Source: Kiritimatiellia bacterium
Lineage (GTDB): Bacteria > Verrucomicrobiota > Kiritimatiellia > RFP12 > UBA1067
Direction: 5' to 3'
Length of the DNA stretch: 64,000 nt
Assembly (NCBI GenBank): GCA_051884915.1
Contig: JBJEWF010000004.1
Coordinates: forward strand, 243-64,242
Made by a program: the position numbers and the translations under genes. Of the stretch, positions 373 to 56,499 are shown one piece after another (position 1 is the stretch's first letter; each line of letters begins with the position of its first letter). The notes under the pieces are model-generated. The model was not told where the DNA came from. It made no database searches and worked only from the letters and a program-made list of their open reading frames with translations.

Positions 373-3300
373 CTAGCGAATGATGATCTGGGAACCGCCC
401 AGCGGCACGAGCCGGAGACACTTGCCGTCGGCATCGAGCTTGACGCCGACCGTTCCGGGCCGCACGCCCTCGATGGCGAAGGTCGGCGCGGTCTCGGCGA
501 TCAGGCTGCCGGTCCACGTCAACAGCGTGCCCGAAGGACGGAGGCCCTCCGGCGCGTCGATGCGGACGACGACGTTCCCTTCCAGCGTCAGGTCGCCCGT
601 CACGGCAATCGGGCGCAGCGCCTCGTCCTTCGCGCACGCCGCCGCCAGCGCCGCGCCGTCCATCAGCGTCAGGCCGTCCGCGAACGTGAAGGCGCTCGTC
701 GTCGTGGCCTTCACCGCCGCGCCGGGCGTCAGCGTGATTGGACCTGCGGACACGCCATCGCCCCACAGCGTCTGTCCGGGATAGAGCAGCGCGCCGTAGT
801 TGCCGGGACCGCCGAAGGTCGCCCCGGCGTGGACGACCACTTCCTTCGACATCTGCTGCCCGGTCGCCGCCTTGCCGCGGGTCGCCCCCGCGAGATCGAG
901 CCCGTAGGTCCGCGCCAACTCCTCCCCGACGGCGAGCACCTCGTCGTCGGACAGAACCTGGCCGCCCCAGAAGCGGATCTCCGCCACGTCCACCGGCGCG
1001 TAATGGCACTTGCCGAGTTCTCCGCCGCCCAGCAGGATGCGGGTGTTGTGGATGGTATTCGACATCGTGCAGGCCGCGGTTTCCTTCGCCCCGTCGATGA
1101 ACAGCGCCATCGTGTCCGGCACGTCGCTCTTCTTCGGGTAACGGACGACGACGACGTGCGCCTCGCCGTCGTTCAGGAAGCGCGAACGCGAACGTATCGT
1201 CTCGGAGGCGTTGGCGTAGCGGTGGGACGCGCCGATCCGGGCCGTCGCGGAGAGCATCAGCTGCCAGTTTTCGGCGTCCCCCGAGTAGAAGGCGGAACCG
1301 AGGAACGCCGCGCCTGCATCGGGCGCGAAGGCGCCGCCGCCCGTGCCGTAGCCGTGGAAGCGGACGACCGCGGCGACGGTCAGGCCGTCCTGGTTCCCGA
1401 CCGGCGTCGCGGACATGCCCGTCAACGCCAGGCAGGAGTCCGTGCCGTTGAAGGACACCATCTTGCGCCCGGCCAGCGTGTCGGAGGCGATCACCGGCGC
1501 CGTCGTCTGGCCCGGATATTCCGTGGACTGCACGAGAATGACGTCCGCGAGGTCCCGCGTGAACGTCCAGGTCGCGCCGTTGCCCGGCCCCTTGCCCGAC
1601 TTTTCGGGCCACGTCGCCACGGCCTCGCCCGCCGTCTGCGCGAGCGAATCCGCGGCCCAGACGGCCGTCGCCTCGGGCACCGCCGCGCGCGCACCGTCCT
1701 CCAGGTCGTTCCACAGCCGCTCGCCCGCGAACGCCGCCACGCCGTACTTGACGCCGAGTTCGCGCTGGACCGTCGCGCACAGGTCGGACGCGACAACGCC
1801 CGCCGTCATGCGCAGGTCGGCCAAATAGCCCCGAAACCGGCAGACGGGATCGGTCTGGCGTTCGCCCACGCCGAGGACGATGCGCGTGCGCCGCGTGCTC
1901 CTCACGTGATTGGTAGAGGGCTGCAGGGTGTAGACCTGGTCGTCGACGCGGAAACTCCACACCTTGTCGGCCTCCCAGCTCCACGTGACGACGTGCGGCT
2001 TTCCGTCGTTCACGACGACGTTCGAGGCCCACAGGGTCTCGTCCGGCAGGTCCTGCAGCACCTTGTCTTCATCCTCCCATCGGCCACCGAACGTGCCGCA
2101 TCCCACGTGCCCCTGGTCGTCGAGCGCGATACCGTACAGATGATCGAGGGAAGGATTATCCCAGGAGGAGTCGTCGATCGACGTGCCGAAGATCTGGGTG
2201 GCCGTGCGGATGTCGGACGAGGCCGTGCCGGCGAATCCCGGTTCCGTCTGGAAGACCATCGAGACCGTGAACGCCTTCTGCTCGCTGATGGGCTGGGCGG
2301 CGTTTCCCGTGAGGAACGCCGTGTTCGAGCCGTCGAACGCCAGGGCGTCGTGCCCGTTCACGGCGCCCGCGGCCAGCGTCGGGAACGTCGTCCCCCCCGT
2401 GTTGACGATGGTGGTGCCGTGCTTGAAGGACCAGACATCCTCCGGCACCATCGCGCCGCAATTCGTCCATTCGCTCAGCACGGCGCCGTTCGCGGCGGCG
2501 CCACAGCCGTCGCCCGTCCAGACGGCCGTCTCGAACCGGCTGCCGTAGGCGAGGCGCCCCTCGACGACGTCCGTCCGGCCCGTGTAGTCGTTCGCCCCCC
2601 GCAGCTGAAGGCAGCCTCCGCCCGTCTTGCGCAGACCGCCGGCGCCGTAGAGCGAGCCCGAGATGGCGATGTTGGAGATCGAATTGGGGACTTCCACGGA
2701 GACGCCGCCATCCCGGTTGGACAGGCGCATATCGGCCGGCGACTGGGTGGCCGTCTGTATGAAGGCCAGCGTGCCGCCCGAGAGAACGACGTCATACCAG
2801 GAGGGATCGGTCGGGTCGTCCGCGCTCCAGGCGCTGGCCGTCCGCAGACCGCCCGCGCCGACTTCCAGACGGCCCCCCGTCAGCCCGACGCGCACGCCCG
2901 CGTGGACGTCCGAGAGTTGCCACGTGTTGTTGTTGTTGCCGAAGAGCACGGCCGGCGTCCGGACGAGGCCGCCGGAGATCTCCAGCCGCGCGGACGACCA
3001 GTCCGACTCGGAGAACGCCACCGATTTCCCGTCCTTCTGCACGCTCTCGTTTATGAAACTGCGCGGCGCGAGGGAGAGGCCGGTGGCCCACCAGTTCCCC
3101 TGATCGGCCTGCGGCATGGTGCTCGTGTATTCGCCGCCCGTCACCCGCACCTCCGCCGGATAGGCGTCGCCGTTGCCCAGCCCGACCACGAGACGGCGGG
3201 AGGAGAACGAGCCCCCTTCAATCTGGAGCCGCTGCTCCTTCAGCCCATATTCCGCGGCCATGCCGCGCCCGAGAATGGCGCCGTAGGAGAACGCCGTCTC

Positions 3301-4320
3301 GCCGGCTTTCTGCGTCCACGACCCGCTCCGCAGATCGAACCAGACGTTGCCCGTCACGTCGGCGCCATCCGAGATGACGTGCGAGTCCTGCACGCGGATG
3401 TGGCCCTCTTCCCGATCCGACGTGTCGGACGCGGGCCCGCGCACCGCGTCCCCGGACGACAACGTAAAGGTATTGGTCCGGGAGGAGAAGCTCTTGTCGG
3501 AATCGGCTCCACCGAAGACCAGGTAGCCGGGGTTGTCGAACACGCCGCCTGAACCTGAAAGCAGGTCCGAAAACCTGAACGTATAGGTGTCTGTGCTCGG
3601 GATGAGCAGCAGTTTGGAACCCCTCGTCATCGTCGGAACCGAATTCAGGACGACGTCTTCGAGCGCGAAGATCTGAAGCCCGCTCATCGCGACGACGGAC
3701 GTCGACAGATCGCCCATGACCATGAGGTTGCCCGACGGGGAACCGGATCCGTGCGTCGTCAGCGACACGCAGATCCGCCCCGGCCCCGTGACCGACCGCT
3801 TGAAGGCGGGCGTTTTGTTGTCGCCCCAGGTCCAGGTCTGGTCGACCGGCAGGATCAGGTCCACGTCCAGATACTGACGAAAGTAATCAGACCCTGTTTC
3901 CGTGAAGATGCCGAGGCCGGCGGCGCCCAGCGTCAGCGTCCCGCCCGCGGGCGCCTGCAGGGTCAGGGCGTTGACGGTGTTCGTGCGAATGATGCCGGCC
4001 CAGATCGTCGTCTCGCCCAGCTGCAGCGTCTCCGGCGTCTGCCCGTCGAAGACGGCCACGTCGTCCGCGCCCGGCACCACGCCATCCGACCAGGCGTCCG
4101 GATTCGTCAGGTCGGTGATGCCCGAATCGTTGTTGTAGACGAACGTCAGCGGCGCATCGGCGCTCCCCTCGTCCCAGCCGTTGGTCGCCTCCTCCGCGCG
4201 GACGTCCGGCGTCCAGCTCGCCGCGGCCAGCAGCGCGCCCGCCAGCCAGAGGACGGTGGACGGTTTTCGCGACAGCGGTTTCGCATCAGAGAGCGGTTTC
4301 ACACCCGAGACATGGAGCAT
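373..4320 (-). CDS. Giant (~1316 aa) secreted protein with repeated LamG/concanavalin-A-like jelly-roll domains; adhesin-like PVC-type surface protein
   Basis: Long minus-strand ORF. ATG at 4320 is preceded by SD AAGGAAG. N-terminal signal peptide MLHVSG...LWLAGALLAAASW. LamG-like segments (for example ...VVRFHGYGTGGG...HVVVVRYPKK...) occur at least twice. The ORF track start at 4377 is a GTG in the 5' leader. Confidence 0.75.
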   Translation of the reverse strand: MLHVSGVKPLSDAKPLSRKPSTVLWLAGALLAAASWTPDVRAEEATNGWDEGSADAPLTFVYNNDSGITDLTNPDAWSDGVVPGADDVAVFDGQTPETLQLGETTIWAGIIRTNTVNALTLQAPAGGTLTLGAAGLGIFTETGSDYFRQYLDVDLILPVDQTWTWGDNKTPAFKRSVTGPGRICVSLTTHGSGSPSGNLMVMGDLSTSVVAMSGLQIFALEDVVLNSVPTMTRGSKLLLIPSTDTYTFRFSDLLSGSGGVFDNPGYLVFGGADSDKSFSSRTNTFTLSSGDAVRGPASDTSDREEGHIRVQDSHVISDGADVTGNVWFDLRSGSWTQKAGETAFSYGAILGRGMAAEYGLKEQRLQIEGGSFSSRRLVVGLGNGDAYPAEVRVTGGEYTSTMPQADQGNWWATGLSLAPRSFINESVQKDGKSVAFSESDWSSARLEISGGLVRTPAVLFGNNNNTWQLSDVHAGVRVGLTGGRLEVGAGGLRTASAWSADDPTDPSWYDVVLSGGTLAFIQTATQSPADMRLSNRDGGVSVEVPNSISNIAISGSLYGAGGLRKTGGGCLQLRGANDYTGRTDVVEGRLAYGSRFETAVWTGDGCGAAANGAVLSEWTNCGAMVPEDVWSFKHGTTIVNTGGTTFPTLAAGAVNGHDALAFDGSNTAFLTGNAAQPISEQKAFTVSMVFQTEPGFAGTASSDIRTATQIFGTSIDDSSWDNPSLDHLYGIALDDQGHVGCGTFGGRWEDEDKVLQDLPDETLWASNVVVNDGKPHVVTWSWEADKVWSFRVDDQVYTLQPSTNHVRSTRRTRIVLGVGERQTDPVCRFRGYLADLRMTAGVVASDLCATVQRELGVKYGVAAFAGERLWNDLEDGARAAVPEATAVWAADSLAQTAGEAVATWPEKSGKGPGNGATWTFTRDLADVILVQSTEYPGQTTAPVIASDTLAGRKMVSFNGTDSCLALTGMSATPVGNQDGLTVAAVVRFHGYGTGGGAFAPDAGAAFLGSAFYSGDAENWQLMLSATARIGASHRYANASETIRSRSRFLNDGEAHVVVVRYPKKSDVPDTMALFIDGAKETAACTMSNTIHNTRILLGGGELGKCHYAPVDVAEIRFWGGQVLSDDEVLAVGEELARTYGLDLAGATRGKAATGQQMSKEVVVHAGATFGGPGNYGALLYPGQTLWGDGVSAGPITLTPGAAVKATTTSAFTFADGLTLMDGAALAAACAKDEALRPIAVTGDLTLEGNVVVRIDAPEGLRPSGTLLTWTGSLIAETAPTFAIEGVRPGTVGVKLDADGKCLRLVPLGGSQIIIR

Positions 4321-4417
4321 GGCAATTCTTCCTTTTCTTGCTGTTTTCGGCCCGCGACGGCACCGCGGGGCGGACACGTCGCCCCCCCGGCGAGACTGCC
4401 GGAACAGTCTGCCATGA

Positions 4418-4450
4418 ATTATAACTATTTTTTTTTTTTTTTTCTGTCAA
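4418..4450 (-). promoter_or_regulatory. Sigma70-like promoter whose spacer is an A16 homopolymer (T16 on the + strand, 4428-4443): TTGACA-N21-TATAAT
   Basis: Minus-strand TTGACA at 4450-4445 and TATAAT at 4423-4418, both consensus. The spacer G-A16-TAGT is 21 nt. Predicted TSS is near 4411; the gene ATG is at 4320. Confidence 0.5.
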
Positions 4451-4568: not shown

Positions 4569-4597
4569 TTGCGCCCGTGCCGTGAATGCCCTATAAT
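4569..4597 (+). promoter_or_regulatory. Candidate sigma70 promoter for the downstream secreted hydrolase gene
   Basis: TTGCGC (4569-4574), 17-nt spacer, TATAAT (4592-4597). It is divergent from the adhesin promoter. Confidence 0.4.
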
Positions 4598-11762: not shown

Positions 11763-11957
11763 TGGGCATCTCCTGATATGAACAATGCCCAGGCGAACGA
11801 CTTTCCCGGCCCAGGGCCGAATCCGCGGTTCATGTGGTAGACGCCACTCGCGGGCACGCGCCCGCTATCGCCAGTTCCGCAGACGCCCGCCATGATAGCA
11901 CAACCGCGCGGATCGGGGAAGAGGGAAAGCGCGGAAATCGTCGCCGCCCGCCGCCGG

Positions 11958-13950: not shown

Positions 13951-16626
13951 TCAACGGATGTCGATGGGACCGAGCAGACCGGCGGACTGGAGCGGATCCG
14001 CCGTCGTGTAGCCGGAATAGACGGTCGGGCGGATCTTCCAGGCCGGGCCGCCGGCCGGCGGCTTGCGTTCGCCCTTCCAGTAGTGGAGGTTCGACCTGGT
14101 CACGCGCGCGGCCTCGTCGAGGAAGCAGTCGCCCACGAGGCGGTTGTACCAGTTGTTGACGTAGCGGATTTCGAGCTCGTTGGCGCCCGCGCGCACGGCA
14201 GGGGCGATTTCGGCCTCCCACGGCGCGCACCACACGGTTCCGCAATCGGTCCCGTTCACGTAGACGCGGGCCAGGCCCGTCGGGACCTTGCCGAGGGAGA
14301 GCGTGAGCGACGCGGGCTTGTCGGCCGCGAAATCGAAGGTCGTCCGGTAGGTGGCGGTGCCGGCGAAATGCCGGAGGTCGTCGCGCGTGGAGAAGTCGAC
14401 CAGCTCGTCCAGCTTCACGGGCGCGGGCGCGGCGGCCTTGACGTACTTGTGGTAGGCGAACGACACCGTCCACGGCCCCGCCACGCGCAGGTTCAGCGGA
14501 GGGCGTTTCGCCGGTTCGGGCGCCAGCCCGTCGGGCGTCGTCTGCCGGAACACCACGAAACGGCTGCCGCCGACCGGCAGATCGAGCGCGAGCCGGGTGC
14601 GTCCGTCCGCCTGCGGCACGGCCTTCGCCGCGACGCGCGTGGCCGTCACGGCGTCCCAGATCTCGACCGCCGGCGCCGCCGCGCGGAAAACGAGATCCGC
14701 CGCGCCCTCGCCGGCGATGAAGTAGACGTCGTCCTGCCCGAGGCGGCGGTGGCACCAGGTGAAGTCGGACGCCGTCTCGACGTCGGGCGGCAATCCCGCC
14801 ACGGGGACCGTTCCCGTGCGGTTCGCCGCCGGGCGCGCGTCGTAGACGACGCGATAGCGCTTCAGCAGGTCGGGATTCCGCCGGAGCGCGGCGTCGTTGA
14901 CGGTGTCGTAGGCGTAGCCGCGCGGAATCCGGACGGGCATCTCGTCCGACACGAGATTGCGGAAGCGGGTGTTCTTCTGCGTGCCCCAGTGCGTATAGGC
15001 GCGATCACCCGTCAGCACGGCGATGTCCGTCACGGGTTCGCCGGCCTGGAGGAGCGACTGGCAGCGCGCCAGATAGGTCACCATCGCGGGGAACTCGTCG
15101 TGCCAGGTCACGTTGCGGTTGATGTGCGACCCCGCGAAATACTCGATGCCCGGCGTGCCGTACTTCAGCGGCGACGACGTGTAGGTATGCCAGACGAGCA
15201 GATTGACGCCGTCGGCAAACGCCTGGTCGCCCAGCGGCTTGAGAAACGCCGGGTCGACCGACCAGTGGCGGTGCATGTGCGTGAAGGCCTCGACCGAGGC
15301 GATTCGCCGGTCGAAGACGTGCGCGGCGGAGACCACGCCCTTGGCGATGAAGCGCCCGTTCGCATTGGCGTGGCCGGCCGCCGGGGAGCGCCCGTTCTCC
15401 GCCACCGGCCAGAATTCGCCCTGCGGGAAGTCGTTGTGGAAGAGGAACTCCAGCATGTCGCATTCGCCGAACGTCTGCGGGTTGCGCTGCCAGGGGCCGC
15501 CCGACTCGGAAAACGCGCCCATCCCGTGCGCCTGCGCCCACGCCCGCACGGTGCCGTAGAGGTGTTCGCCCATCATCACGCCGCGCGCATGGCGGAAGTC
15601 GCGCATGACCGCGTCGGTCGGCTTCGCGGCCAGCTCGAAACCGGCCAACGCCGGCAGGAACGGCCGCACCGCGTATCCCTCGGCGGCCGCGAAGTCCTCC
15701 TCGAAGGTGGCGCTCCAGGTCGGCATCGCCCCTTCCCAGCTGACGTTGTACAGGTTGGCGAAGGTCTTGTCGCGGCCGACCAGGTCCGGCACGCGGGCGA
15801 TCAGCCGGCCGACGACGCGCTCCAGATGGCGGCACACCGCCGTGCGGTCGAGAACGTCGATGTCGACCTCCTGCCCCTTCAGCGTTCCGGCCCCGAAACG
15901 GACAATCGTCCACCCCTCCGTCAAGGCCGCGCCGTCGGCCGCCGACTTCAGTTCGCGCACCTCCAGCGCCCGGCGCGTGACGAATCCCGAACCGCCGTCC
16001 ACGCGCGTGCCGGAGGAGGCGGCCATCGTGTAGTAGCCGTCGCCCGCATGGGCCCAGTCGCTCCGCGCCGCCGCCTCGGCGGTCCTGACGGCGAACACGG
16101 CCACTTCGCGGTAGTGCGGAATCGCCGGCGTCTCGAAGGCGTCGCCCGGCAGATAGTTGCGGCACATCAGGAACTTGGGATTGTCCGCCCCGACGTCCAC
16201 GTCGCCGCGCAGATGGCCGCCCGAGGCCGCGATGTTGAGCGAGAACGTGAGCTTGTTGCGCGCCGCTTCGCGCACCGCATGGGCAAAGAGATCCAGCCAC
16301 GCGTCGCCGCCCCACTGCATCGTCGGCGGCGGCACGAGCAGATGCTCGTCGTCCACATGGTAGCCGCGGCTGTCCGTCACCAGCATCCCGCCGAAGCCGA
16401 GCCGCGCGATGTCGGCGAATTCCTCGGCAATCGTCTCGCGGTCCGTGAGCGTATTGGTGAGAAACCAGTAGCACCACGGTCGCGCCGCCAGCGGCGGATC
16501 GGCGAACCGGGAAAAACACGCGCCGGCGGCCGCCCCGGAAGCCGCGACCGCCGAAACCGCCAGAACGGGGAACAGCAGGACGGCTCCCCCCAACGCAAAT
16601 GCCAGTCTGTTCTTCATGGGAGGCAT
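13951..16626 (-). CDS. Large secreted glycoside hydrolase (GH106/alpha-L-rhamnosidase-like or related; family uncertain)
   Basis: Signal peptide, then the ARPWCYWFLTN...GFGGMLVTD opening typical of a group of uncharacterised GH TIM-barrel enzymes. About 890 aa. Confidence 0.55.
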   Translation of the reverse strand: MPPMKNRLAFALGGAVLLFPVLAVSAVAASGAAAGACFSRFADPPLAARPWCYWFLTNTLTDRETIAEEFADIARLGFGGMLVTDSRGYHVDDEHLLVPPPTMQWGGDAWLDLFAHAVREAARNKLTFSLNIAASGGHLRGDVDVGADNPKFLMCRNYLPGDAFETPAIPHYREVAVFAVRTAEAAARSDWAHAGDGYYTMAASSGTRVDGGSGFVTRRALEVRELKSAADGAALTEGWTIVRFGAGTLKGQEVDIDVLDRTAVCRHLERVVGRLIARVPDLVGRDKTFANLYNVSWEGAMPTWSATFEEDFAAAEGYAVRPFLPALAGFELAAKPTDAVMRDFRHARGVMMGEHLYGTVRAWAQAHGMGAFSESGGPWQRNPQTFGECDMLEFLFHNDFPQGEFWPVAENGRSPAAGHANANGRFIAKGVVSAAHVFDRRIASVEAFTHMHRHWSVDPAFLKPLGDQAFADGVNLLVWHTYTSSPLKYGTPGIEYFAGSHINRNVTWHDEFPAMVTYLARCQSLLQAGEPVTDIAVLTGDRAYTHWGTQKNTRFRNLVSDEMPVRIPRGYAYDTVNDAALRRNPDLLKRYRVVYDARPAANRTGTVPVAGLPPDVETASDFTWCHRRLGQDDVYFIAGEGAADLVFRAAAPAVEIWDAVTATRVAAKAVPQADGRTRLALDLPVGGSRFVVFRQTTPDGLAPEPAKRPPLNLRVAGPWTVSFAYHKYVKAAAPAPVKLDELVDFSTRDDLRHFAGTATYRTTFDFAADKPASLTLSLGKVPTGLARVYVNGTDCGTVWCAPWEAEIAPAVRAGANELEIRYVNNWYNRLVGDCFLDEAARVTRSNLHYWKGERKPPAGGPAWKIRPTVYSGYTTADPLQSAGLLGPIDIR

Positions 16627-16746
16627 TATAGTAAATCGACCGCGCTCCGGTCAATCGGGATCCGGCCGGCGGCGGGCCGTTTCCTTTCCGGAATCGGCGG
16701 ACGCGGGGAAACATCCGGCTAACAGAAATCTGCTATAATCTTCCGC

Positions 16747-35099: not shown

Positions 35100-36797
35100 C
35101 TACTGGTCTTCCGTCACGCGGCGAATTTCATTCACGCTGGTCACGCCCTTGAAAACCTTGGCCCAGCCGTCCTCGCGCAGCGTCTTCATGCCCTTCTGCA
35201 GCGACAGGTGCTGGATCTGCGTCGCGTTTTCCCGGCGGATGATCGCCCCTTCGATGTCCTCGTCGACTTCAAGCACCTCAAAGAGCGCGCGGCGGCCCTT
35301 GTATCCCGTCCGGCTGCAGGAATCGCACCCGCGCTCCGCCGGCTGGAAGACCGTCTCCGCCGCCGGCGGATAGGGCAGATCGTACCACTTCCGGTCCAGC
35401 GGGACCTCCTGCCGGCATTTCGGGCAGAGGCGCCGGCACAGGCGCTGCCCCATCACGCCCGCCACGGCGGACGCGATCAGAAACGGCTCCACGCCCATGT
35501 CGATCATGCGCGGGAAGGCGCCCGCCGCCGTGTTCGTATGCAGAGTCGAAAAGACCATGTGGCCCGTCAGCGACGCGTTGATGGCGATTTCCGCCGTTTC
35601 GCGGTCGCGGATTTCGCCTACCATGATCTTGTCCGGATCCTGGCGCAGAAAGGCCCGCAGCGTCCGCGCGAAGTCGAGTCCGATGTCCTTGTTCATCTGG
35701 ACCTGGATGATGCCGTCCATCTGGTATTCGATCGGGTCTTCCGCCGTCAGGATGCGCACGTCCATCGTGTTCACTTCATGCAGGAAGGAGTAGAGCGAGG
35801 TCGATTTGCCCGAACCCGTCGGCCCCGTCACGAGGAAGATGCCGTTCGGCCGGCGGATGATCTTGTCCACCACGCGGAAGTCGCGATCGTTGAATCCCAG
35901 GTCGGCCATCCTGACGAAATTGCCGCTCTTCGCCAGCAGACGCAGGGAAATGGACTCGCCCCAGGCGCCCGGCATCGTCGAAACGCGGATGTCGATGTCC
36001 TCGCCGCCCAGCCGGATGCCGATGCGCCCGTCCATCGGCAGCCGTTTCTCGGCGATGTCCAGGTTCGCCATGACCTTGATGCGGGAGATGATCGCGGATT
36101 TCAGGCGGTTCAGCTGGGGCGGCACGTCGACCTTGTGGAGCATGCCGTCGATGCGGTAGCGGATCCGCAGCTCCGTCTCCTGCGGTTCGATATGGATGTC
36201 CGTGGCCCCCTGGCGGTCGGCTTCGGCGATGATCCGGTTCACGAACTTGACGATGGAGGCCTCTTCGCCCTCGGCGCCGACGTCGATCTTCGAGATCGAG
36301 CCGTCGTCGTCGTCCACGGCGTAGCGGCCGTCTTCGATCATCTTCTCGATCGCGTCGGCGCCGACGCCATAGAACTTCTTGACCGCCTTGTCGATGTCCT
36401 CGCGCGGCGCCAGGACGATCTTCACCGGACACCCCGCCGCCAGGCGCAGGCCGTCGCCGGCGACCGTCGAGAACGGATCGTTGGACACGACGGTCAGGAC
36501 GCCGTCGGCGAATCTGACCGGCAGCACGTTGTACTGGTACACGGCCGAGGCGGGGAGCTTCTGCAGCACGTCGGGACGGGGCTGGACCTTCTCCAGTTCG
36601 ACATAGTCGAAGCCCAGAAAGGCCCCCGCCTTCTGCAGGAACTCGGCCTCCCGGATGCCGCCGAATTTGACGGCCGCCTCCGCCAATCCCATCTCCGGGT
36701 TCTTCGCCCGTCCCTCGGCAATGCGCGCCAGGGCCTCTTCCGAATAGAGTCCCGTCGCCCGCAAAACGTCAAGCGCCAACCGTGACATATCGCTCAT
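35100..36797 (-). CDS. gspE: Type II secretion ATPase GspE
   Basis: Walker A GPTGSGKST, Asp box, Walker B and His box, plus the tetra-Cys motif CPKC...CDSC. 565 aa. Confidence 0.9.
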   Translation of the reverse strand: MSDMSRLALDVLRATGLYSEEALARIAEGRAKNPEMGLAEAAVKFGGIREAEFLQKAGAFLGFDYVELEKVQPRPDVLQKLPASAVYQYNVLPVRFADGVLTVVSNDPFSTVAGDGLRLAAGCPVKIVLAPREDIDKAVKKFYGVGADAIEKMIEDGRYAVDDDDGSISKIDVGAEGEEASIVKFVNRIIAEADRQGATDIHIEPQETELRIRYRIDGMLHKVDVPPQLNRLKSAIISRIKVMANLDIAEKRLPMDGRIGIRLGGEDIDIRVSTMPGAWGESISLRLLAKSGNFVRMADLGFNDRDFRVVDKIIRRPNGIFLVTGPTGSGKSTSLYSFLHEVNTMDVRILTAEDPIEYQMDGIIQVQMNKDIGLDFARTLRAFLRQDPDKIMVGEIRDRETAEIAINASLTGHMVFSTLHTNTAAGAFPRMIDMGVEPFLIASAVAGVMGQRLCRRLCPKCRQEVPLDRKWYDLPYPPAAETVFQPAERGCDSCSRTGYKGRRALFEVLEVDEDIEGAIIRRENATQIQHLSLQKGMKTLREDGWAKVFKGVTSVNEIRRVTEDQ

Positions 36798-36898
36798 AAT
36801 CGAATCCGCTCTTTCCCGTGCGGGATTATATCAAAAAAAAGGGTTTGCAGACATGAAATGTGCCGCACGGCCAAAAATGACAAAACTTTCCCGCGCAA

Positions 36899-36927
36899 TT
36901 GACGCAATCGGGGATATCTGATATACT
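36899..36927 (+). promoter_or_regulatory. Sigma70 promoter for the tRNA-Gly/tRNA-Leu pair
   Basis: TTGACG (36899-36904), 17-nt spacer, TATACT (36922-36927), about 20 nt upstream of the tRNA-Gly 5' end. Confidence 0.45.
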
Positions 36928-36946
36928 TCGGACCGTTTTTCCCCTC

Positions 36947-38181: not shown

Positions 38182-40938
38182 TCAGAACTCGACCGACGGG
38201 TCGAGCGGATACCGGCCAAAGTCCGCGCCGTAGACCGCCAGGCCGTGCTCGTCCGTCTCCAGCCGGACGACCACCTTGCCGTCTCCCTTCGCCAGGATCT
38301 CCGGCGCGATCTCGGCCTCGACCAGATAGCCGTAGGATCCCGCCTCGTTGAGCGTCCGCGACTTGCGCATCTCCGGACGCTGCTGCGCCGCCCAGGAGAG
38401 AATGCCCCGGTGGTCGGCCGGGTCGTCGGGCAGGACCATGGTCTTCACCAGTTCGCCGTTGGCATAGACGCTGAGCGTGCCGGACCATTTTTCCGCGCAC
38501 GTCATCGGATAGCTGTTGGGGTTCTTCGACCGGTCGGCAAATCCGCCGCCGAGCATGCAATCCAGATCGCGGACGCCCTTGTCGAGGTCCTTCGTGTCCT
38601 TCGCATTCAGGCGCTTGGCCGACACTTCCGCCCGGAACGTCGCCTTCCGGCCCGCCGGCACGCCCGCGAACGCATACTCGAAGAATCCCTTGCCGGCGCC
38701 ATTGGCCTTCTCGCCGTCGAAGATGTTCCACTGCTTCTGCGACCACGACGCCTTCGAGAAGGCGCCCGGCTTCACCGAGACCACGTTGTCGGGCGCCTTC
38801 CCCTTCGTCGCGAAGCAGGCAAAGTTCCGCGCCACGACCGTGTCGCCGTCCTTCAGCTCGAAACAGATCACGCCGCTCGCCGTCTCGTCCGGCAACGCGA
38901 CGGGGACGTCAAGCACCCGTCCGTTCTGCCACGACGACGCCGTGAACGAACCGGCCTCCGCCGGGGCGGACTCCGTCAGCCGACCCTTCGCGTTCCAGCT
39001 GCGGATCCACGAGAAGACCGTCAGGCGCTTCCCCGTGTACTTGTCGGTTGTCAGCGAGACGTCGACCGGCATCGTCCACGTCTCCCCCGCCCCGAACGCG
39101 CGGAAAAGCTCCCTGTCCAGCGGCAGATAGGCGTCGGCATGCCAGTCCTTCAGCGACGAGCCCGGAACGAGCTCCTCCACGCCGGTGAACTTCTCCGTGC
39201 GGTCGAACCGGACGTAGCCGTTCCACTCGTTGATGACGTCGTGGTGTTCCGTATACAGCCAGCCGCCGCAGGCCAGCCGGCGCCGGAAGGCGTTCATCAT
39301 CATGTGGTAGTCCCACGACCAGTCGCAGTCGCCCGTCGACCCCTTGTATCCCCAGACGTTGCCGCATTCGGAATTGAACATCGGCGCGCCGTTCTGCACA
39401 TAGCCGCCGATGTAGTTGTGGGTCGATCCGGGGAACGTGCTCTTGCATTGACGCTCGACCTCGTTCTCCCAGCCGTAGCCCGGCAGATAGCCATGCCAGG
39501 TGTTGATGTCCGTGATCACGTGGTCGCGGTTGCAGGGCGAATTGTCCTCGACGAGCCGCGTGGGATCCAGCGCCTTCGCCTTGGCGTAGGCGTCCGCCAC
39601 GCGCCGGCGGACCCACGGGGCATACCGGTTCGCGCGATTCGCGCCCCAGTTCTCGCCGTCGGCGAACAGGCCCCAGGTTTCATTGAACAGCACCCAGGAG
39701 AAGATCGAGGGATGGTTGAAATCGCGCGCGACCATGTCCTCGAAGCAGAACCAGTGCTCGCGGAACATCGCCTCGCTCGCCGGCCCCCAGGCGCAGGGCA
39801 CGTCCGCCATGATGAGCAGGCCCAGCCTGTCCGCCCAATACAGCTTGCGCGGAATCTCGACCTTGATGTGGATGCGGTTGCCCGACAGCGCCAGGTTCTT
39901 GGAAATCATGATTTCGTTCTTCATGAACGCGTCCGACGGGAACGTGTAGAAACCGTCCGGATGATAGCTCTGGTCCAGCGTCAGCTGCAGATAGATCGGC
40001 TTGCCGTTCAGCGTCACGTAGGGAACGTCCGACCCCGGCAGCTTCCCGACGGCGACCTTGCGCATGCCGAAATAGGTCGAAACGGCATCGGCCGTGCCCT
40101 CGCCCTCCAGCACGACCTTGACTTCGTAGAGGTAGGGGTTGTCCAGATCCCAGAGCTTGACGTTGCGGAGAGGGATCCTGACCCTGGCCGACATCTGGCC
40201 CGGCACGAACTGGACGACGGCGGGCTTGGCCCGGTCGTCTTCCCTGAACTGGACCTGGAACGTCAGCGGCTTCTTCGCCGGCGCGCCCAGCCTCACGTCG
40301 GCCGTCACCAGGCCGTTTTCGATGTCGGGCGTGAAGTGGACCTTCTCCAGATAGTCGGCGCCGCGCGCCTCCAGATAGACGGTCTGCCACACGCCGCGCG
40401 CGTTGCCGTAGCCCTGCTTCCCGTACAGCCGCCAGTCGCGCCGCGACAGTTCCGCCGGCGCGTCCCACGCGCGCAACGTGATCTTCTGCGGGCTTCCCCA
40501 GTTCACGTGGTCGGTCAGTTCGAACTCGAACGGCGTATAGCCGCCCGAATGGGCGCCCAGCCGGTTGCCGTCGAACCAGCACGTCGTGTCATGGTCCGAC
40601 GCGCCGATGACGAGAAAGACGCGCTTGCCCTTCCACTCCGCCGGCACGGTCACGTCGCGGCGATACCAGCCGACGTCCGCCTCGTCGCCGACGCCCGAAA
40701 GCCTGCTGCCCCACGGGAACGGCACGGTGATCGACTTGTCGAACGCGTCGTCCGCGGCAGTGAACCACTGCTCCTTCTCGCCGACGTCCCGGCCGTCGAA
40801 CGCGAACCGCCAGGAACCGTTCAGGTTCATCCAGAGGGCGCGTTCCCAGTCTGGACGCGGATGCTCCGGCAGAGGGATTTCGGACCGAAGGCCGCCGGCA
40901 AGGGCCACGACGCAAAAGGCGAACAGAATGTTTTTCAT
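38182..40938 (-). CDS. Secreted glycoside hydrolase family 2 protein (beta-galactosidase/beta-glucuronidase-like)
   Basis: Signal peptide MKNILFAFCVVALAGG. GH2 sugar-binding, immunoglobulin-like and TIM-barrel signatures (NHPSIFSWVLFNE, NSECGN). About 918 aa. Confidence 0.8.
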   Translation of the reverse strand: MKNILFAFCVVALAGGLRSEIPLPEHPRPDWERALWMNLNGSWRFAFDGRDVGEKEQWFTAADDAFDKSITVPFPWGSRLSGVGDEADVGWYRRDVTVPAEWKGKRVFLVIGASDHDTTCWFDGNRLGAHSGGYTPFEFELTDHVNWGSPQKITLRAWDAPAELSRRDWRLYGKQGYGNARGVWQTVYLEARGADYLEKVHFTPDIENGLVTADVRLGAPAKKPLTFQVQFREDDRAKPAVVQFVPGQMSARVRIPLRNVKLWDLDNPYLYEVKVVLEGEGTADAVSTYFGMRKVAVGKLPGSDVPYVTLNGKPIYLQLTLDQSYHPDGFYTFPSDAFMKNEIMISKNLALSGNRIHIKVEIPRKLYWADRLGLLIMADVPCAWGPASEAMFREHWFCFEDMVARDFNHPSIFSWVLFNETWGLFADGENWGANRANRYAPWVRRRVADAYAKAKALDPTRLVEDNSPCNRDHVITDINTWHGYLPGYGWENEVERQCKSTFPGSTHNYIGGYVQNGAPMFNSECGNVWGYKGSTGDCDWSWDYHMMMNAFRRRLACGGWLYTEHHDVINEWNGYVRFDRTEKFTGVEELVPGSSLKDWHADAYLPLDRELFRAFGAGETWTMPVDVSLTTDKYTGKRLTVFSWIRSWNAKGRLTESAPAEAGSFTASSWQNGRVLDVPVALPDETASGVICFELKDGDTVVARNFACFATKGKAPDNVVSVKPGAFSKASWSQKQWNIFDGEKANGAGKGFFEYAFAGVPAGRKATFRAEVSAKRLNAKDTKDLDKGVRDLDCMLGGGFADRSKNPNSYPMTCAEKWSGTLSVYANGELVKTMVLPDDPADHRGILSWAAQQRPEMRKSRTLNEAGSYGYLVEAEIAPEILAKGDGKVVVRLETDEHGLAVYGADFGRYPLDPSVEF

Positions 40939-41004
40939 GCGGCCATTATACCACAACGACCGGACGGGTGGCAAATCCGCCGCCGGGACGATCCGGGCGG
41001 GCCG

Positions 41005-44274: not shown

Positions 44275-44299
44275 CCGGACAATTATACTCATTTTCCCC

Positions 44300-51840: not shown

Positions 51841-51916
51841 TGGCACCGTTAAGCGCGGAACTATACCATAGAAGGACATGGACACGCACGCGAGAGCAGA
51901 AACGGAGCGAAACGAA

Positions 51917-53059
51917 ATGAAACGGACAAACGGGAGCGGAACGCTCTACAGAAGGACGGGCAGCGACATCTGGTACACGAGAATCCTCATCGGCGGGAAA
52001 TGGGTGCGGAAGTCTACCGGCGAGACGGACCGCGCAAAGGCCGAGAAGATTCTGGACGAATACGCCACCGGCCACGACCTTCCAGACGACGCGCGGCTGG
52101 CGGCGGTCGAGGCGATCCTCAAGGCACGGCGCAGCCATTCGCCGACATTCGCCGAGGCATGGGACCTCTACACGCGCCACCCGAAGAACGCGGACCAGAG
52201 CCAGGGCGCGCAAGGAATCGACCTCGGACGCTGGCGCGTTTTCACCCGCTGGGCCGGAGGATATCAGGGCGGCGACCGTTGCCGAATCAACCAGGACGCC
52301 GCGCACCCGGAAGTCGAACGGCTCGAAGACGTGACCCAGGACATCGCAAGTGAGTTTGTCGCCTGGGCACGCGGAACGGTGTCACCGTCAACCGTCAACC
52401 GATACATCCGCGTCTGTCGCCGAATCTGGGACTTTGCGAAGGCCGAACGGAATCCCTGGGTGGACTTCCCTCACCTCAAGACGGACGCACAGAAGCGGAG
52501 ACGTCTCACGCCGGAAGAACTCACGCGGCTCATTGAATCGGCCACGGGCGAAATGCGGACGCTTTTCGTGATCGGAGCCTACACGGGACTCCGCCTGGGC
52601 GACGCGGCCCATGTGACCTGGGAACAAGTCGACGCGGCGGCTGGAATCATACGGCTACGCCCGCACAAGACGATCTACTCCGCCGGAACCTGGGTCCACC
52701 TGCCAATGCACCGCGTTCTCTCCCGCCAGCTCGGGAAGCCGAAGAAGCGCGGATACGTCACGCCCGAAATGGCGTCGTGGCCTCAATGGAAGTTGAGCGA
52801 CGCGGCCCAGGCCCACTTCGAGGTATGCGGACTTGCAGAAAGACGCAAGGCGGACGGCTACAAGCGCCACACGGCGGTCGTCGGTTTCCATTCGCTGCGG
52901 TCCACGTTCGTCTCTCTCATGGTGGACGCTGGCGTGCCGCTGGCCATCGTCCGGGCGCTTGTCGGACACGTCGACGAGGAGATCACCCTGCGCTACTACC
53001 GCATGGAGGAGGAGCGGGCACGGGCGGAAATCGACAAGCTGCCCGACTTCACGGCGTAA
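51917..53059 (+). CDS. int: Tyrosine-type site-specific integrase (phage integrase family)
   Basis: N-terminus MKRTNGSGTLYRR. C-terminal catalytic motifs HSLRSTFVSL...GH...LRYY. The ORF-track start at 51878 is an upstream extension. Confidence 0.9.
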   Translation: MKRTNGSGTLYRRTGSDIWYTRILIGGKWVRKSTGETDRAKAEKILDEYATGHDLPDDARLAAVEAILKARRSHSPTFAEAWDLYTRHPKNADQSQGAQGIDLGRWRVFTRWAGGYQGGDRCRINQDAAHPEVERLEDVTQDIASEFVAWARGTVSPSTVNRYIRVCRRIWDFAKAERNPWVDFPHLKTDAQKRRRLTPEELTRLIESATGEMRTLFVIGAYTGLRLGDAAHVTWEQVDAAAGIIRLRPHKTIYSAGTWVHLPMHRVLSRQLGKPKKRGYVTPEMASWPQWKLSDAAQAHFEVCGLAERRKADGYKRHTAVVGFHSLRSTFVSLMVDAGVPLAIVRALVGHVDEEITLRYYRMEEERARAEIDKLPDFTA

Positions 53060-53067
53060 AACCGCTT

Positions 53068-53277
53068 TCAGAGTTCAGACGGATCGATATCGGCGTCGCG
53101 CAGGATTTTACGGAGCAGCCCGACATGAAGCGGACGGGATCCGTGAGCGGGAACCGTGATCAGCGTCGCCACTCCGGGCTTTTTGAACTGCATATGGCTG
53201 CCGTCTTTCATGCGGGCAAGCGACCAGCCTCGAATATTCAGCTCATGGGCGAGCTGCCTGGCGTTCAACTGCTTCAT
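53068..53277 (-). CDS. hicA: HicA-family mRNA interferase toxin
   Basis: 69 aa. ...GWSLARMKDGSHMQFKKPG...TVP... matches the HicA (YcfA-like) signature. Confidence 0.8.
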   Translation of the reverse strand: MKQLNARQLAHELNIRGWSLARMKDGSHMQFKKPGVATLITVPAHGSRPLHVGLLRKILRDADIDPSEL

Positions 53278-53474
53278 ACGAGAACGCTGGCAACCTCGGC
53301 GCCGTCCGGGACCTCGAACGAGTTGAGGCCCTCAAGGTGGAAGCTGATCGCCTTGCGGAGATTCTCACGAAGCTCCTCAAGCGTGTCTCCGCTCGAATAG
53401 CACCCGGGCAGGGCCGGAACCTCAGCCCAGAAAGACCCGTCCTCGCGGCGGACTATGGCTTTGTACTGGCACAT
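53274..53474 (-). CDS. hicB: HicB-family antitoxin (short UPF0150-only form)
   Basis: 66 aa. ...EDGSFWAEVPALPGCYSSGDTLEELRENLRKAISFHLE matches the HicB N-domain. Overlaps hicA by 4 nt. Confidence 0.75.
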   Translation of the reverse strand: MCQYKAIVRREDGSFWAEVPALPGCYSSGDTLEELRENLRKAISFHLEGLNSFEVPDGAEVASVLV

Positions 53475-53689
53475 TGGATGGTTTATACCTCAGTTTCGAT
53501 TCTGTTCAGTTCGCAAAAAACGCGGCTATGATACCACAACCGAGGACGTGACGCAACCGGGACAAGCCCTGAAATCACCCACTCGGAACGCCCCGCCGAA
53601 CGCCCAGGAAAATGCTTCGCGGACACTTCGCGCGAAATATCGCAAAATGTTAATTATAGCTCTTGCACAGCGTACACAGCGCGATGCTT

Positions 53690-53729
53690 CGCAACCCTAA
53701 GTTTTTATAATATAAAAACTATAGGGTTG
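53690..53729. repeat. 40-bp near-perfect palindrome GCAACCCTAAGTTTTTATAAT/ATAAAAACTATAGGGTTGC in AT-rich non-coding DNA
   Basis: The arms are reverse complements apart from a 1-nt indel. AT-rich core contains TATAAT in both orientations. Confidence 0.6.
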
Positions 53730-54166
53730 CAAAGTATGCGCGCAAACTGTACCCCCACCCCTTAACTGTAAATTCAATATACGCAGTCGAGCACCCCTAC
53801 AGTACCCCTGGACTCCTACAGAACAGAACAACACAAGACGCTCACGGAAAAAGACCAACGGCAGCATGCCCCCCAACCCTACCCTTCCCACGCCCGGAGA
53901 TGCGTCGGCGTGGCTGCGAGGGCCTGAAAGATTCTCATGGGCGACACTTGACGGGCGGCGTCGCCGTGGTAGAAAGCACGAAGCAGGTCGCGGATCTTGC
54001 GTTTGCATGAAGCGCATCGACCTCATCCGCACAATTACCGAAAAATGCGCCGTATTTGTCCGCAATGGACACGACCACGACTGGTACCGAAATGTCGTGA
54101 CAGGCTGTCTTTCAGCCGTTCCACGCCACCGTTAGAGCGGTTGTAGAAAAAATATGAAAAAATCAT

Positions 54167-54195
54167 AAAAACCATATTGACGGTGTAAAACACCT
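54167..54195 (+). promoter_or_regulatory. Perfect sigma70 promoter TTGACG-N17-TATAAT with the 13-bp palindromic operator GGTGTAAAACACC occupying the spacer (operator copy O1, 54172-54184)
   Basis: -35 at 54167-54172, -10 at 54190-54195. An AGGA RBS and the first ribbon-helix-helix gene follow at 54239. Confidence 0.6.
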
Positions 54196-54238
54196 ATGGT
54201 ATAATACGCGCCACAAAGACCAAAACAGGAACATCAAA

Positions 54239-54427
54239 ATGCCGAACAAACGAAAGCAAGGAAAGAAGTTGGTAGCCGGATGGCTACAAAGTGGTGATGC
54301 CGAAGAGTTCAAGGATCGTGCCGCAGAATTGGGCATGACCACAACCGATTTGCTGACACTTCTAATCCGAGAGGAATTGAAGCGTAGCAACCGCACAAAC
54401 ACAAATCCAACCGAAAGGAATGCCTGA
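54239..54427 (+). CDS. Ribbon-helix-helix (CopG/Arc-like) DNA-binding protein 1
   Basis: 62 aa. ...AELGMTTTDLLTLLIREEL... matches the RHH helix pattern. Driven by the operator-containing promoter. Confidence 0.65.
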   Translation: MPNKRKQGKKLVAGWLQSGDAEEFKDRAAELGMTTTDLLTLLIREELKRSNRTNTNPTERNA

Positions 54428-54428
54428 A

Positions 54429-54600
54429 ATGGAAATGGAAATGCAAAACATCGAAGTGACCTTGTCCGACAAGGAAATCAAGGACTTCAACGAACTATGC
54501 GCCGAGCGCAATGTCTGCCCTGCGCAAAAAATAGGCGAACTGATACACGGGTTTATTTTGGCCGAGGGTGTAAAACACCAAATCAGAAAGACAGCATGAG
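54429..54600 (+). CDS. Ribbon-helix-helix-like small protein 2 (56 aa; absent from the ORF track because it is under 60 aa)
   Basis: MEMEMQNIEVTLSDKEIKDFNELCAERNVCPAQKIGELIHGFILAEGVKHQIRKTA has the beta-strand-then-two-helix RHH layout. Starts 2 nt after the RHH1 stop. Confidence 0.5.
54568..54580. promoter_or_regulatory. Operator copy O2 of the palindrome GGTGTAAAACACC (inside the 3' end of the second RHH ORF)
   Basis: Exact 13-bp repeat of the O1 sequence. Confidence 0.5.
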
Positions 54601-54618
54601 GTATTTTTTGACCGTGCG

Positions 54619-54631
54619 GTGTAAAACACCG
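54619..54631. promoter_or_regulatory. Operator copy O3 of the palindrome GGTGTAAAACACC, embedded in an extended inverted repeat CCGTGCGG...CCGCACGG
   Basis: Exact 13-bp repeat, 51 bp centre-to-centre from O2, immediately upstream of the RBS of the third RHH gene. Confidence 0.5.
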
Positions 54632-54663
54632 CCGCACGGCCTGAAACCTAACAGGAGCGGGAC

Positions 54664-54846
54664 ATGAGCGACGAGAAGATGATAAACGTGCCGCTGGACG
54701 ATGAGACGAAGTTCGTCCTTGAAACCAGCGCGAGGGAGAACGGACGCGCCGTAGGGCGCGAAGCCGCTATGCTGATAAAGCGCGGGCTTGCCTCATTCCG
54801 GCGCGGGCTGGAAGCGGCGGGCGCGTTGGAGCGGAAAGGCGCGTGA
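54664..54846 (+). CDS. Ribbon-helix-helix (Arc/MetJ-like) DNA-binding protein 3
   Basis: 60 aa. MINVPLDDETKFVLETSARENGRAVGREAAMLIKRGL. RBS AGGAG upstream. Confidence 0.65.
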   Translation: MSDEKMINVPLDDETKFVLETSARENGRAVGREAAMLIKRGLASFRRGLEAAGALERKGA

Positions 54847-54956
54847 CATGGAGCGCAAGGCCGCGCTTGGATCCGCCGAGGACGGAGGCGAGCCGGACGG
54901 TGAAATCAGAACTTAACCCACTACACCAACCACCCGAACCGAAAGGAACCGAACCG

Positions 54957-55298
54957 ATGACAAACCCGAACTTCCCCGAACTCGAGATCGACTGCGCCCA
55001 CTGCGTCTTCGGCTGCAGCGCGATCCGTGCGAAGAACGTCAAAGAAGGTAACAAGAAATGGACGAAGAGACTAATCGAAATCTTTGAGTGCCGTATTTTC
55101 AGGCCATCTCAGACCTCATCCTTCCCCGAGATCAACATCAACGACTGGTGCGGGTACTTCTGCGACGCGGAGACACTGGCCCGCCCCTTCGTCGGGCTGA
55201 ACGCCGCCCCGAATGATCCCGCCAAGCTCCGCCACAAGCCCGTGCAGCCGCGAAAGATCCACGCGGAGGATCAGCCGCGAGAGGAGGTGGCCGAATGA
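54957..55298 (+). CDS. Cys-rich (zinc-finger-like) hypothetical phage protein
   Basis: Motifs CAHCVFGC...C...CGYFC. Start MTNPNFPE at 54957 with a GGAACCGAACCG RBS-like region. The ORF-track start at 54843 is an extension. Confidence 0.5.
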   Translation: MTNPNFPELEIDCAHCVFGCSAIRAKNVKEGNKKWTKRLIEIFECRIFRPSQTSSFPEININDWCGYFCDAETLARPFVGLNAAPNDPAKLRHKPVQPRKIHAEDQPREEVAE

Positions 55299-55456
55299 AG
55301 CCGGAGACCGTCGAGACGCTGAAGGAAGCCGTCGGCTGCGTGGCCGTGTTCATCATCTACGTCGTTCTGGCGTGGCTTTTCCTGACCGCGACGCCGCCGC
55401 AGTTTTCTGCCGAACGCGACCTTTGCGCCGAACAGATGGAAGGGATTGCGAAATGA
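55295..55456 (+). CDS. Small (53 aa) single-TM membrane protein, ATGA-coupled to both neighbours (not in ORF track)
   Basis: MKPETVETLKEAVGCVAVFIIYVVLAWLFLTATPPQF... The start overlaps the previous stop and the stop overlaps the next start. Confidence 0.4.
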   Translation: MKPETVETLKEAVGCVAVFIIYVVLAWLFLTATPPQFSAERDLCAEQMEGIAK

Positions 55457-55632
55457 CGAAGGCGGAAGCAATCATCGTGCTGCAGAAGATCCACGACCGC
55501 TGCCCTTCGTCGTACCAGCGCGAGGCCGTCAACGCCGGAATCGCCGCCCTTCTCCGCTCCATCAAGTCGACGAAGGCCGCGAAGAGGAACCACATCGCAC
55601 GCGCGAAGGCCGCGAGGAAGGCTGGCGATTAA
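55453..55632 (+). CDS. Small basic hypothetical protein (59 aa)
   Basis: MTKAEAIIVLQKIHDRCPSSYQREAVNAGIAALLRSIKSTKAAKRNHIARAKAARKAGD. Translationally coupled on both sides. Confidence 0.45.
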   Translation: MTKAEAIIVLQKIHDRCPSSYQREAVNAGIAALLRSIKSTKAAKRNHIARAKAARKAGD

Positions 55633-55799
55633 TGGCAACCGAGAAGAAGCACTACCTTGTCGAGACGCACGTCGGCCCCCAGGAAACCTGGGCCACCTCT
55701 CCGAAGAAGGCAATCGCCCAGGTCCGCTACCGTCTCGTCGGCGGAGCGTTCGCCGGAACCTGCAGGACAACATACTGGACCGTGAAGGAGATCGCATGA
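55632..55799 (+). CDS. Small hypothetical protein (55 aa)
   Basis: MATEKKHYLVETHVGPQETWATSPKKAIAQVRYRLVGGAFAGTCRTTYWTVKEIA. TAATG overlap with the upstream gene and ATGA overlap with the downstream gene. Confidence 0.45.
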   Translation: MATEKKHYLVETHVGPQETWATSPKKAIAQVRYRLVGGAFAGTCRTTYWTVKEIA

Positions 55800-56098
55800 A
55801 GACCGCCGCCAACCTTCCAGACATCAAGTGCAAGTTCGACGCAATCGTCGACGCACTGGAACAGAAGATCCGCGAACTTCGGACCTTCGCCGCGGACAAC
55901 CTGGCGCAGCCAGTCGCAGTCAACGGCGCGACGGAACAGATTATCAGCGTCGCGGACGCAGCCGAGGTCCTCTCGAAGTCTACGAAGACCGTCCTCCGCT
56001 ATTGCCGCGCCGGAAGTCTCAAGGCGTACAAGGCCCCAGGCGCGAAGCTCACGACGGGCGTCTACCTCTCGTCGCTGAACGCCCTGCTGAACGATTAA
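55796..56098 (+). CDS. HTH DNA-binding protein (excisionase/MerR-like HTH)
   Basis: ...ISVADAAEVLSKSTKTVLRYCRAGSLKAYK is a helix-turn-helix typical of Xis/AlpA-like proteins. 100 aa. Confidence 0.55.
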   Translation: MKTAANLPDIKCKFDAIVDALEQKIRELRTFAADNLAQPVAVNGATEQIISVADAAEVLSKSTKTVLRYCRAGSLKAYKAPGAKLTTGVYLSSLNALLND

Positions 56099-56114
56099 CC
56101 AACCACAAAAGGAG

Positions 56115-56498: not shown

Positions 56499-56499
56499 C

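Follow-up and report, generated by a model that had tools for sequence, protein, structure and literature searches.

Introduction

Most of what has been established on contingency loci built on repeats comes from host-adapted pathogens such as Neisseria, Haemophilus, Helicobacter, Campylobacter, Mycoplasma and Treponema. The closest described systems place a simple repeat in the promoter of a surface-protein gene. In Treponema pallidum, work by Giacani et al., as described in PMC7864442, concerns a poly-G tract between the -35 and -10 elements of the sigma70-type promoter of tp0126, which encodes an OmpW homolog and putative outer-membrane protein, and poly-G tracts in tpr promoters, of which that within the tprL promoter ranges from 7 to 11 G within isolates; tract length sets promoter activity. 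Here we report on a locus in a 64,000-nt stretch of Kiritimatiellia DNA (the window). It resembles tp0126 in that a homopolymer occupies the promoter spacer, and its Kiritimatiellia orthologs with G8–G10 in the spacer look very similar to tp0126. T. pallidum, however, is a spirochaete pathogen with a poly-G tract, whereas the window comes from Kiritimatiellia and carries a longer poly-A (13–18) in DNA of 66% G+C, in a promoter that is predicted from sequence.

In Neisseria meningitidis, a poly-C tract in the opc promoter sets expression (Sarkari 1994, cited in PMC3447861). In opc, and by prediction in the window, expression of a surface protein depends on how many bases a promoter homopolymer contains, and slipped-strand mispairing is proposed for both. 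The base and the phylum differ; in addition, the expression classes of opc were measured, whereas those of the window locus are predicted only. To our knowledge, the opc promoter does not combine two perfect consensus hexamers; porA and fetA are analogous to opc. Meanwhile, hif in Haemophilus influenzae has a variable combined promoter (van Ham 1993, cited in PMC11868660). The hifA/hifB pair and the window locus share a simple-sequence repeat in the -35/-10 spacer, a promoter that serves a surface structure and a divergent gene pair. The hif repeat, however, is a (TA)n dinucleotide, and its overlapping divergent promoters switch both genes, whereas the -35 boxes of the two divergent promoters considered here are 118 bp apart and the neighbouring gene should be unaffected. 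The original prediction had named opc and the Haemophilus fimbriae as parallels, and both analogies proved to be real (opc in PMC3447861; hif as cited in PMC11868660). Studies of both H. influenzae and C. jejuni with titles of the form 'Repeat number determines ... PV rates' also appear in the timeline table of PMC11868660.

[quoted passage not shown] The Vlp proteins are small lipoproteins of a clustered multigene family in an AT-rich, wall-less bacterium, whereas here one locus was read. Citti and Wise reportedly found a poly(A) tract in the vlp promoter spacers of M. hyorhinis. The likeness to the window locus lies in this poly(A) in the spacer and in a hint of a 5' module shared among paralogs (the first 42 residues, shared with the paralog P0015). 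In Helicobacter pylori, a T-tract in the sabA promoter acts as a 'rheostat', the length of which tunes adhesin transcription in steps (PMC4081817). It is the nearest analogue of a second A tract (A8/A14) at two of the orthologous loci described below (L061 and L062); the window tract differs in that it lies inside the spacer. The sabA tract is said to adjoin the core promoter elements rather than to lie between them, and reportedly acts through DNA geometry. Chlamydia belongs to the same superphylum (PVC) as Kiritimatiellia. Genes of the chlamydial pmpG family contain in-frame poly-G tracts, for which a homopolymer-based switch has been suggested (PMC4488443). These genes are similar in that they encode large, autotransporter-type, PATR-like surface proteins; however, their tract lies in the coding region and would act by translational frameshift, whereas the window tract lies in the promoter.

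Kiritimatiellia are uncultured or barely cultured, high-G+C bacteria of gut and rumen communities, and no paper pairing Kiritimatiellia with phase variation was found in the literature that we searched. The mechanism considered here is well known; what is new is the Kiritimatiellia host, the unusually long poly-A, the length polymorphism in public assemblies and the independent reappearance of homopolymers in the promoter spacers of orthologs.

Results

A long A tract lies between two perfect promoter hexamers

Read on the minus strand, positions 4450..4418 are TTGACA-G-A16-TAGT-TATAAT (Table 1). Re-reading of the strand confirmed the arrangement as it had been predicted, i.e., two perfect consensus hexamers with a spacer of 21 nt. 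The SD sequence AAGGAAG and the ATG at 4320 are also where they had been placed, and 97 nt separate the end of the -10 box from the ATG. The motif itself, which had been assigned to a segment beginning at 4411, spans 4418-4450, and 4411 corresponds to the inferred transcription start. The tract had been called a gross outlier for GC-rich DNA. This is borne out by the window, which has a G+C content of approximately 66% and in which T16/A16 is the sole homopolymer longer than 8 nt; the next longest is an A8 at 36833-36840, and T runs elsewhere do not exceed 6 nt. The window contains a single match to the pattern TTGACA-N14-24-TATAAT, and none of 100 dinucleotide-preserving shuffles contained one. 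Our promoter scan accepted spacers of 16-18 nt only and therefore reported nothing at 4418-4450, because the 21-nt spacer is outside this range.

Table 1. Positions of the features at the window locus and promoter arrangements of orthologous loci.
Feature	Position or locus	Strand	Details
-35 hexamer TTGACA, perfect consensus	4445..4450	-	1 of only 3 TTGACA on both window strands
Single G, first base of spacer	4444	-	
A16 homopolymer, variable element (T16 on + strand)	4428..4443	-	
TAGT between tract and -10	4424-4427	-	
Whole spacer, G + A16 + TAGT, 21 nt	4424..4444	-	AGT before -10, no TGn extended -10 motif
-10 hexamer TATAAT, perfect consensus	4418..4423	-	
Inferred transcription start ~4410-4412; 5' UTR of ~90 nt	4321..4412	-	Inferred from the -10 position
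SD AAGGAAG	4334-4328	-	7 nt before ATG at 4320
Controlled gene, 1315 aa + stop	373..4320 (ATG 4320)	-	Locus tag ACI4Q3_00180, 'hypothetical protein', identical protein in the NCBI MAG
Leader module, codons 1-42	4195..4320	-	Common to paralog ACI4Q3_04750 (P0015)
Divergent neighbour, secreted GH42-like/DUF4832 protein, 487 aa	4700..6163 (ATG 4700)	+	
Promoter of neighbour, TTGCGC-17 nt-TATAAT	4569..4597	+	TATAAT at 4592
Tyrosine integrase	51878-53059		Prophage-like island
ERF recombinase	56500-57096		Prophage-like island
PD-(D/E)XK nuclease	57122-58156		Prophage-like island
RusA	60038-60463		Prophage-like island
Promoter of ortholog P0003	L061		TTGACC-ACCCCTA-G10-TA-TATAAT, spacer 19 nt
Promoter of ortholog P0006 (84% identical to P0003)	L062/L063		L061-type promoter with G8, spacer 15 nt
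Promoter of ortholog P0008	L064		TTGACA-AAACGGAAT-G9-TATAAT, spacer 18 nt
Ortholog promoter, no tract	L058		TTGACA-18-TAGAAT
Ortholog promoter, no tract	L065/L066		TTGACA-17-TATAAT
Ortholog promoter, no tract	L067		TTGACA-17-TACATT
Ortholog promoter, no tract in promoter	L070/L071		TTGCAG-17-TACGAT
Ortholog promoter, no tract	L074		TTGACG-16-TATACT
Ortholog promoter, no tract	L068		TTGTGC-17-TATGTT
Second A tract	L061 2905-2912; L062 2401-2414; L063 71-84		

Other ways of reading this segment were considered. As an alternative -10 element, 'TAGTTA', which is 17 nt from TTGACA at A16, agrees with the consensus at only 2 positions out of 6, the final T not among them; as an alternative -35 element, 'CAGAAA', which is 17 nt from TATAAT, matches at 3 of 6 positions and would support at most basal activity. 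Both were rejected. Similarly, the T run was rejected as part of an intrinsic terminator, as no terminator was called at the tract and the flanking genes are divergent, so that no transcript ends there; on the plus strand, the nearest hairpin is separated from T16 by 17 nt. An RNA element in the 5' UTR or the intergenic region was also rejected, since no Rfam match was found there even at an E value of 1 or less, and the fold energy of the 5' UTR was no better than that of shuffles (z = -0.02).

The -35 boxes of the two divergent promoters are 118 bp apart, and the promoter of the neighbour does not overlap the tract. Because the neighbour has its own promoter at this distance, an effect of the tract on the divergent gene was rejected. 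In addition, no read-through can bypass the A-tract promoter because the upstream gene is divergent, and ACI4Q3_00180 has no other visible promoter.

The N-terminus of ACI4Q3_00180 resembles a signal peptide, and the protein contains a single PATR/autotransporter beta-strand repeat (TIGR02601/PF12951) as well as LamG domains; a PDB profile search with it matched only the PATR region of autotransporter proteases. These features support a secreted or surface protein as its probable nature. The description as a secreted LamG-repeat surface protein holds for the signal peptide and the LamG domains, to which the PATR repeat has to be added; the surface location is predicted, and the label 'adhesin' is a guess. 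The open reading frame (4320..373) is intact over 1315 codons with a GC3 of 0.88, typical of genes in this genome, and gives 1315 aa plus a stop codon in place of the 1316 aa stated earlier.

Promoters in the window show a preferred spacing

The 13 TATAAT hexamers in the window are all located upstream of genes or tRNAs. At 5 of the 13, TTG lies 17-18 nt from TATAAT, where approximately 0.03 per site would be expected (binomial P about 2e-5). The TGn extended -10 motif is found at 6 TATAAT promoters, i.e., at half of the 12 other than the A-tract promoter, and a second element (TTGnnn at 17-18 nt and/or the TGn extension) is present at 10 of these 12. The A-tract promoter alone among the 13 has its -35 element at 21 nt and no TGn. 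Several TATAAT hexamers have an ATG 6-7 nt downstream, which points to leaderless genes, and these TATAAT-N6-7-ATG arrangements support TATAAT as the working -10 box. The promoters of the source organism, as far as they can be read from their hexamers, follow sigma70 logic. Under sigma70 rules, a promoter without the TGn extension relies on contact with the -35 element. The A-tract promoter should therefore be sensitive to spacer length.

Sites of this apparently leaderless type are located at 16615-16745, 40935-40950 and 44275-44290 of the window and also at the promoters of L058, L065 and L074. At these three loci, which carry orthologs of the large protein, TATAAT or a close variant of it stands 6-7 nt before the ATG, whereas the leader of the window gene is 97 nt long and includes an SD sequence.

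Tract length differs between assemblies of otherwise identical sequence

Five Logan contigs from five SRA runs were retrieved by exact-protein look-up of the divergent neighbour (487 aa). In runs SRR30616807, 813, 820, 824 and 825, the tract is T18, T15, T13, T16 and T16, respectively, as compared with T16 in the window, and the spacers are 23, 20, 18, 21 and 21 nt, as compared with 21 nt. The flanks of the five contigs showed 0 mismatches to the window over 2,007-2,928 bases (205 bases to one side of the tract plus 1,802-2,723 bases beyond its other end), and a G7 run located 40 nt from the tract was constant in all assemblies. It had been proposed that tract lengths be compared across metagenomes and that the loss of 3-4 A would give a spacer of 17-18 nt. 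The lengths indeed differ, from A13 to A18, and an A13 allele with an 18-nt spacer is present in one assembly.

The spread of 5 nt runs from -3 to +2 around the mode, A16, and was read from assembled contigs, not from reads; PCR stutter and sequencing error readily affect homopolymers of this length (13-18 nt) and may account for some of the variation. Error alone, however, is a poor explanation for a 5-nt range when no other position differs. A16 was the commonest length (3 of 6 assemblies) and is 3-4 nt off the optimum, the 'ON-like' allele with 18-nt spacing (A13) was found in 1 of 6, and A12 in 0 of 6. A DNA pattern scan of JGI metagenomes with both flanks and a variable gap gave 0 matches, and no protein on record was an exact match to pdxS, to pdxT (195-aa version) or to the large protein.

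Homopolymers recur in the promoter spacers of orthologs

We fetched the DNA upstream of orthologs of 42-75% identity and anchored their promoters on the hexamers (Table 1). In three further Kiritimatiellia lineages, the same part of the spacer is taken up by a run of G8, G9 or G10. Meanwhile, the six tract-free orthologs with a recognisable promoter have spacers of 16-18 nt; that is, the tract-bearing promoters scatter over 15-23 nt, whereas the tract-free ones keep canonical spacing. Because the base differs (A vs G) while the position is the same, the selected property would be mutable length rather than a binding sequence. Such a pattern of spacers would be predicted of a selected mutable spacer, and not of a sequence-specific site or an assembly artefact. 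The switch, however, is not a conserved property of the gene family, since several orthologs are without any tract.

In alignment, the promoters of L061 and L062 differ in little beyond the G tract, a TA dinucleotide and one further tract. The latter is a second variable homopolymer, A8 vs A14, located 12 nt upstream of the -35 element at the position of an UP element. Upstream of the TTGACC box, these two promoters also contain GCATTTTCGCC, which GCATTTTGCGG upstream of the -35 box in the window resembles. Their spacers (19 nt in L061 and 15 nt in L062) are off-optimum, which fits a contingency locus and equally fits promoters in decay. Homopolymers of at least 8 nt are few: 8 were listed in the 117.6 kb of fetched loci, which, with the T16 and A8 of the window, makes 10 in 181.6 kb of Kiritimatiellia DNA, and 6 of these 10 listed runs fall in the promoter region of the large protein.

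In another lineage (L069, L076, L059 and L060), 2-3 REP-like palindromes arranged in tandem take the place of the promoter. The palindromes consist of GGTCGCGACAAGCGCGACCCTCCC and its complement and are found at L069 2124-2256, L076 3296-3476 and L059 1-75 and in the upstream regions of L061/L062; L069 has 2 copies and L076 has 3. Two further G runs lie outside the promoter spacers. A G9 tract in L070/L071 is identical in two samples and is overlapped by open reading frames of at least 80 aa. A G8 run at L062 6193-6200 (= L063 3863-3870) lies inside the coding region of P0006, approximately 40 codons before the stop; from its position and the protein sequence it would encode E-G-G-V, and a frameshift at this point would leave all but the conserved C-terminal tail unaltered. 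A scan of genome contigs with the DUF4832 neighbour gave identities of at most 50%, and the best loci with upstream DNA, L006 and L012, had no tract of at least 8 nt and no obvious counterpart of the window intergenic region.

A paralog shares the leader of the window protein

P0015 (1136 aa), encoded on another contig of the same MAG, is 74% identical to the window protein over 58 aa. Residues 1-42, which include the signal peptide, are shared nearly exactly, residues 24-42 are identical, and the two proteins are otherwise unrelated. The orthologs of the large protein have other leaders and can be aligned only from residue ~58. We infer that codons 24-42 correspond to a stretch of identical DNA of at least 31 nt in both paralogs. 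All five Logan contigs stop at window position 4223. A repeat inside the window was considered as the cause of this shared end, and none was found; the P0015 leader would explain it if the DNA of the two leaders is identical over 31 nt or more, since an assembly graph with k=31 would then be interrupted there. The shared leader suggests a movable 5' module, as judged from the two protein sequences. A homolog search with the leader only (60 aa) returned no candidates. It is conceivable, and in our view rather doubtful, that the promoter, tract, 5' UTR and signal peptide together form a portable 5' module, that at least two genes for giant secreted proteins in this genome carry its leader part, that spacer homopolymers (A in one lineage, G in others, besides the second A tract at the UP-element position) have arisen repeatedly in gut Kiritimatiellia, and that Vlp-like combinatorial surface variation is the result.

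Discussion

We consider the A tract to be, probably, a slipped-strand promoter-spacer switch, of the phase or rheostat type, for a secreted PATR/LamG protein. The switch candidate that had been put forward originally gains support from the length polymorphism, from the 17/18-nt promoter grammar combined with the lack of TGn at this promoter, and from G8-G10 in the spacers of orthologs. The locus also shows the anatomy and the polymorphism expected of a simple-sequence-repeat (SSR) promoter-spacer contingency locus, i.e., a repeat of at least approximately 8 nt, its location between -35 and -10 (in silico) and length polymorphism (at the contig level).

The A tract would be a hypermutable simple-sequence repeat, located in the spacer of the sole promoter that serves the gene, and slipped-strand mispairing in replication would add or remove A residues. 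Spacer length would equal tract length + 5. With A12-A13, the hexamers would be 17-18 nt apart, and a strong promoter is predicted. With A15-A18, the boxes would be displaced by 3-6 bp, i.e., by more than 100 degrees of helical phase, too far for one RNA polymerase holoenzyme, and transcription in the absence of TGn would fall to a low basal level. The population would then be a heritable, reversible mix of ON, OFF or graded states of the surface or secreted protein; the outcome may be ON/OFF or graded (rheostat). We infer all three of the effect of length on transcription, the reversibility and the selective agent, which could be host, phage or substrate.

The observations can also be read in other ways. 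If the tract were fixed in vivo, the spread of 13-18 would be technical, and the promoter would be constitutively weak and over-spaced, its AT-rich spacer having no switching role. The lengths are indeed contig-level, and the contig ends differ within 2-3 kb, which suggests low coverage. Nevertheless, the range of 5 nt occurs while all other bases in 2-2.9 kb agree and G7 is constant, a 16-nt homopolymer is expected, from the known behaviour of simple-sequence repeats, to slip in vivo, and technical error cannot explain G8-G10 in the same spacer of three other lineages. We therefore regard a fixed tract as unlikely. Alternatively, the tract may be hypermutable and yet a neutral or degenerative by-product, in which an A run expanded in a promoter that was no longer needed, so that the gene is silenced rather than switched. 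Decay of this kind is consistent with the modal length, which is 3-4 nt beyond the optimum, with the loss of the promoter to REP-like arrays in related lineages (L069, L076, L059 and L060) and with the spacers of L061 and L062, which are off-optimum too. We give it little credence, as the open reading frame has remained intact over 1315 codons with a GC3 of 0.88, both hexamers are still perfect consensus, which is unexpected under decay, and an A13 allele with 18-nt spacing exists; in addition, the occurrence of independent tracts of A and of G at one and the same position suggests that mutability has been selected.

MerR-family target promoters have good hexamers and spacers of 19-21 nt. The long spacer at the window locus, which with its good hexamers is typical of such targets, might thus be compensated by a DNA-distorting activator of the MerR type, or the rigid A-tract might be read by a nucleoid protein. 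The spacer, however, is a pure homopolymer with no dyad operator, and the adjacent divergent gene encodes the GH42-like/DUF4832 protein and not a merR-family regulator. Moreover, the orthologs have G runs, the DNA structure of which is quite different, at the same place, and no single protein-induced twist could fit a range of 18-23 nt. Compensation of either type is highly improbable on these grounds.

If the slipped-strand switch is real, these commensals, too, would hedge how strongly they express a surface protein; host immunity, phage or a changing supply of glycan substrates may be what they hedge against. The tract would then also serve as a marker readable from metagenomes, with tract length per sample set against the transcript level of the gene. 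If the portable-module reading is true as well, the contingency strategy would be one so far documented almost only in small-genome pathogens. For practical purposes, the tract locus will be mis-assembled or collapsed in MAGs, and a tract length taken from a single assembly should be treated with caution.

Other features of the window

The A8 run (T8 on the minus strand; region 36798-36946) lies just upstream of a TGa-TATAAT -10 element (36830-36825, minus strand). The promoter that it adjoins lies in front of a gene for a GspE/PilB-like secretion or pilus ATPase (35100-36797) and is divergent from two tRNA genes. A ZMP/ZTP riboswitch (RF01750) at 11780-11888 on the minus strand scores 42 bits, little more than the gathering score of 39. 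The last part of the window, 51878-64000, appears to be an integrated prophage-like island (Table 1) with a lower G+C content of 0.52-0.63 and a strong A>T skew on the plus strand.
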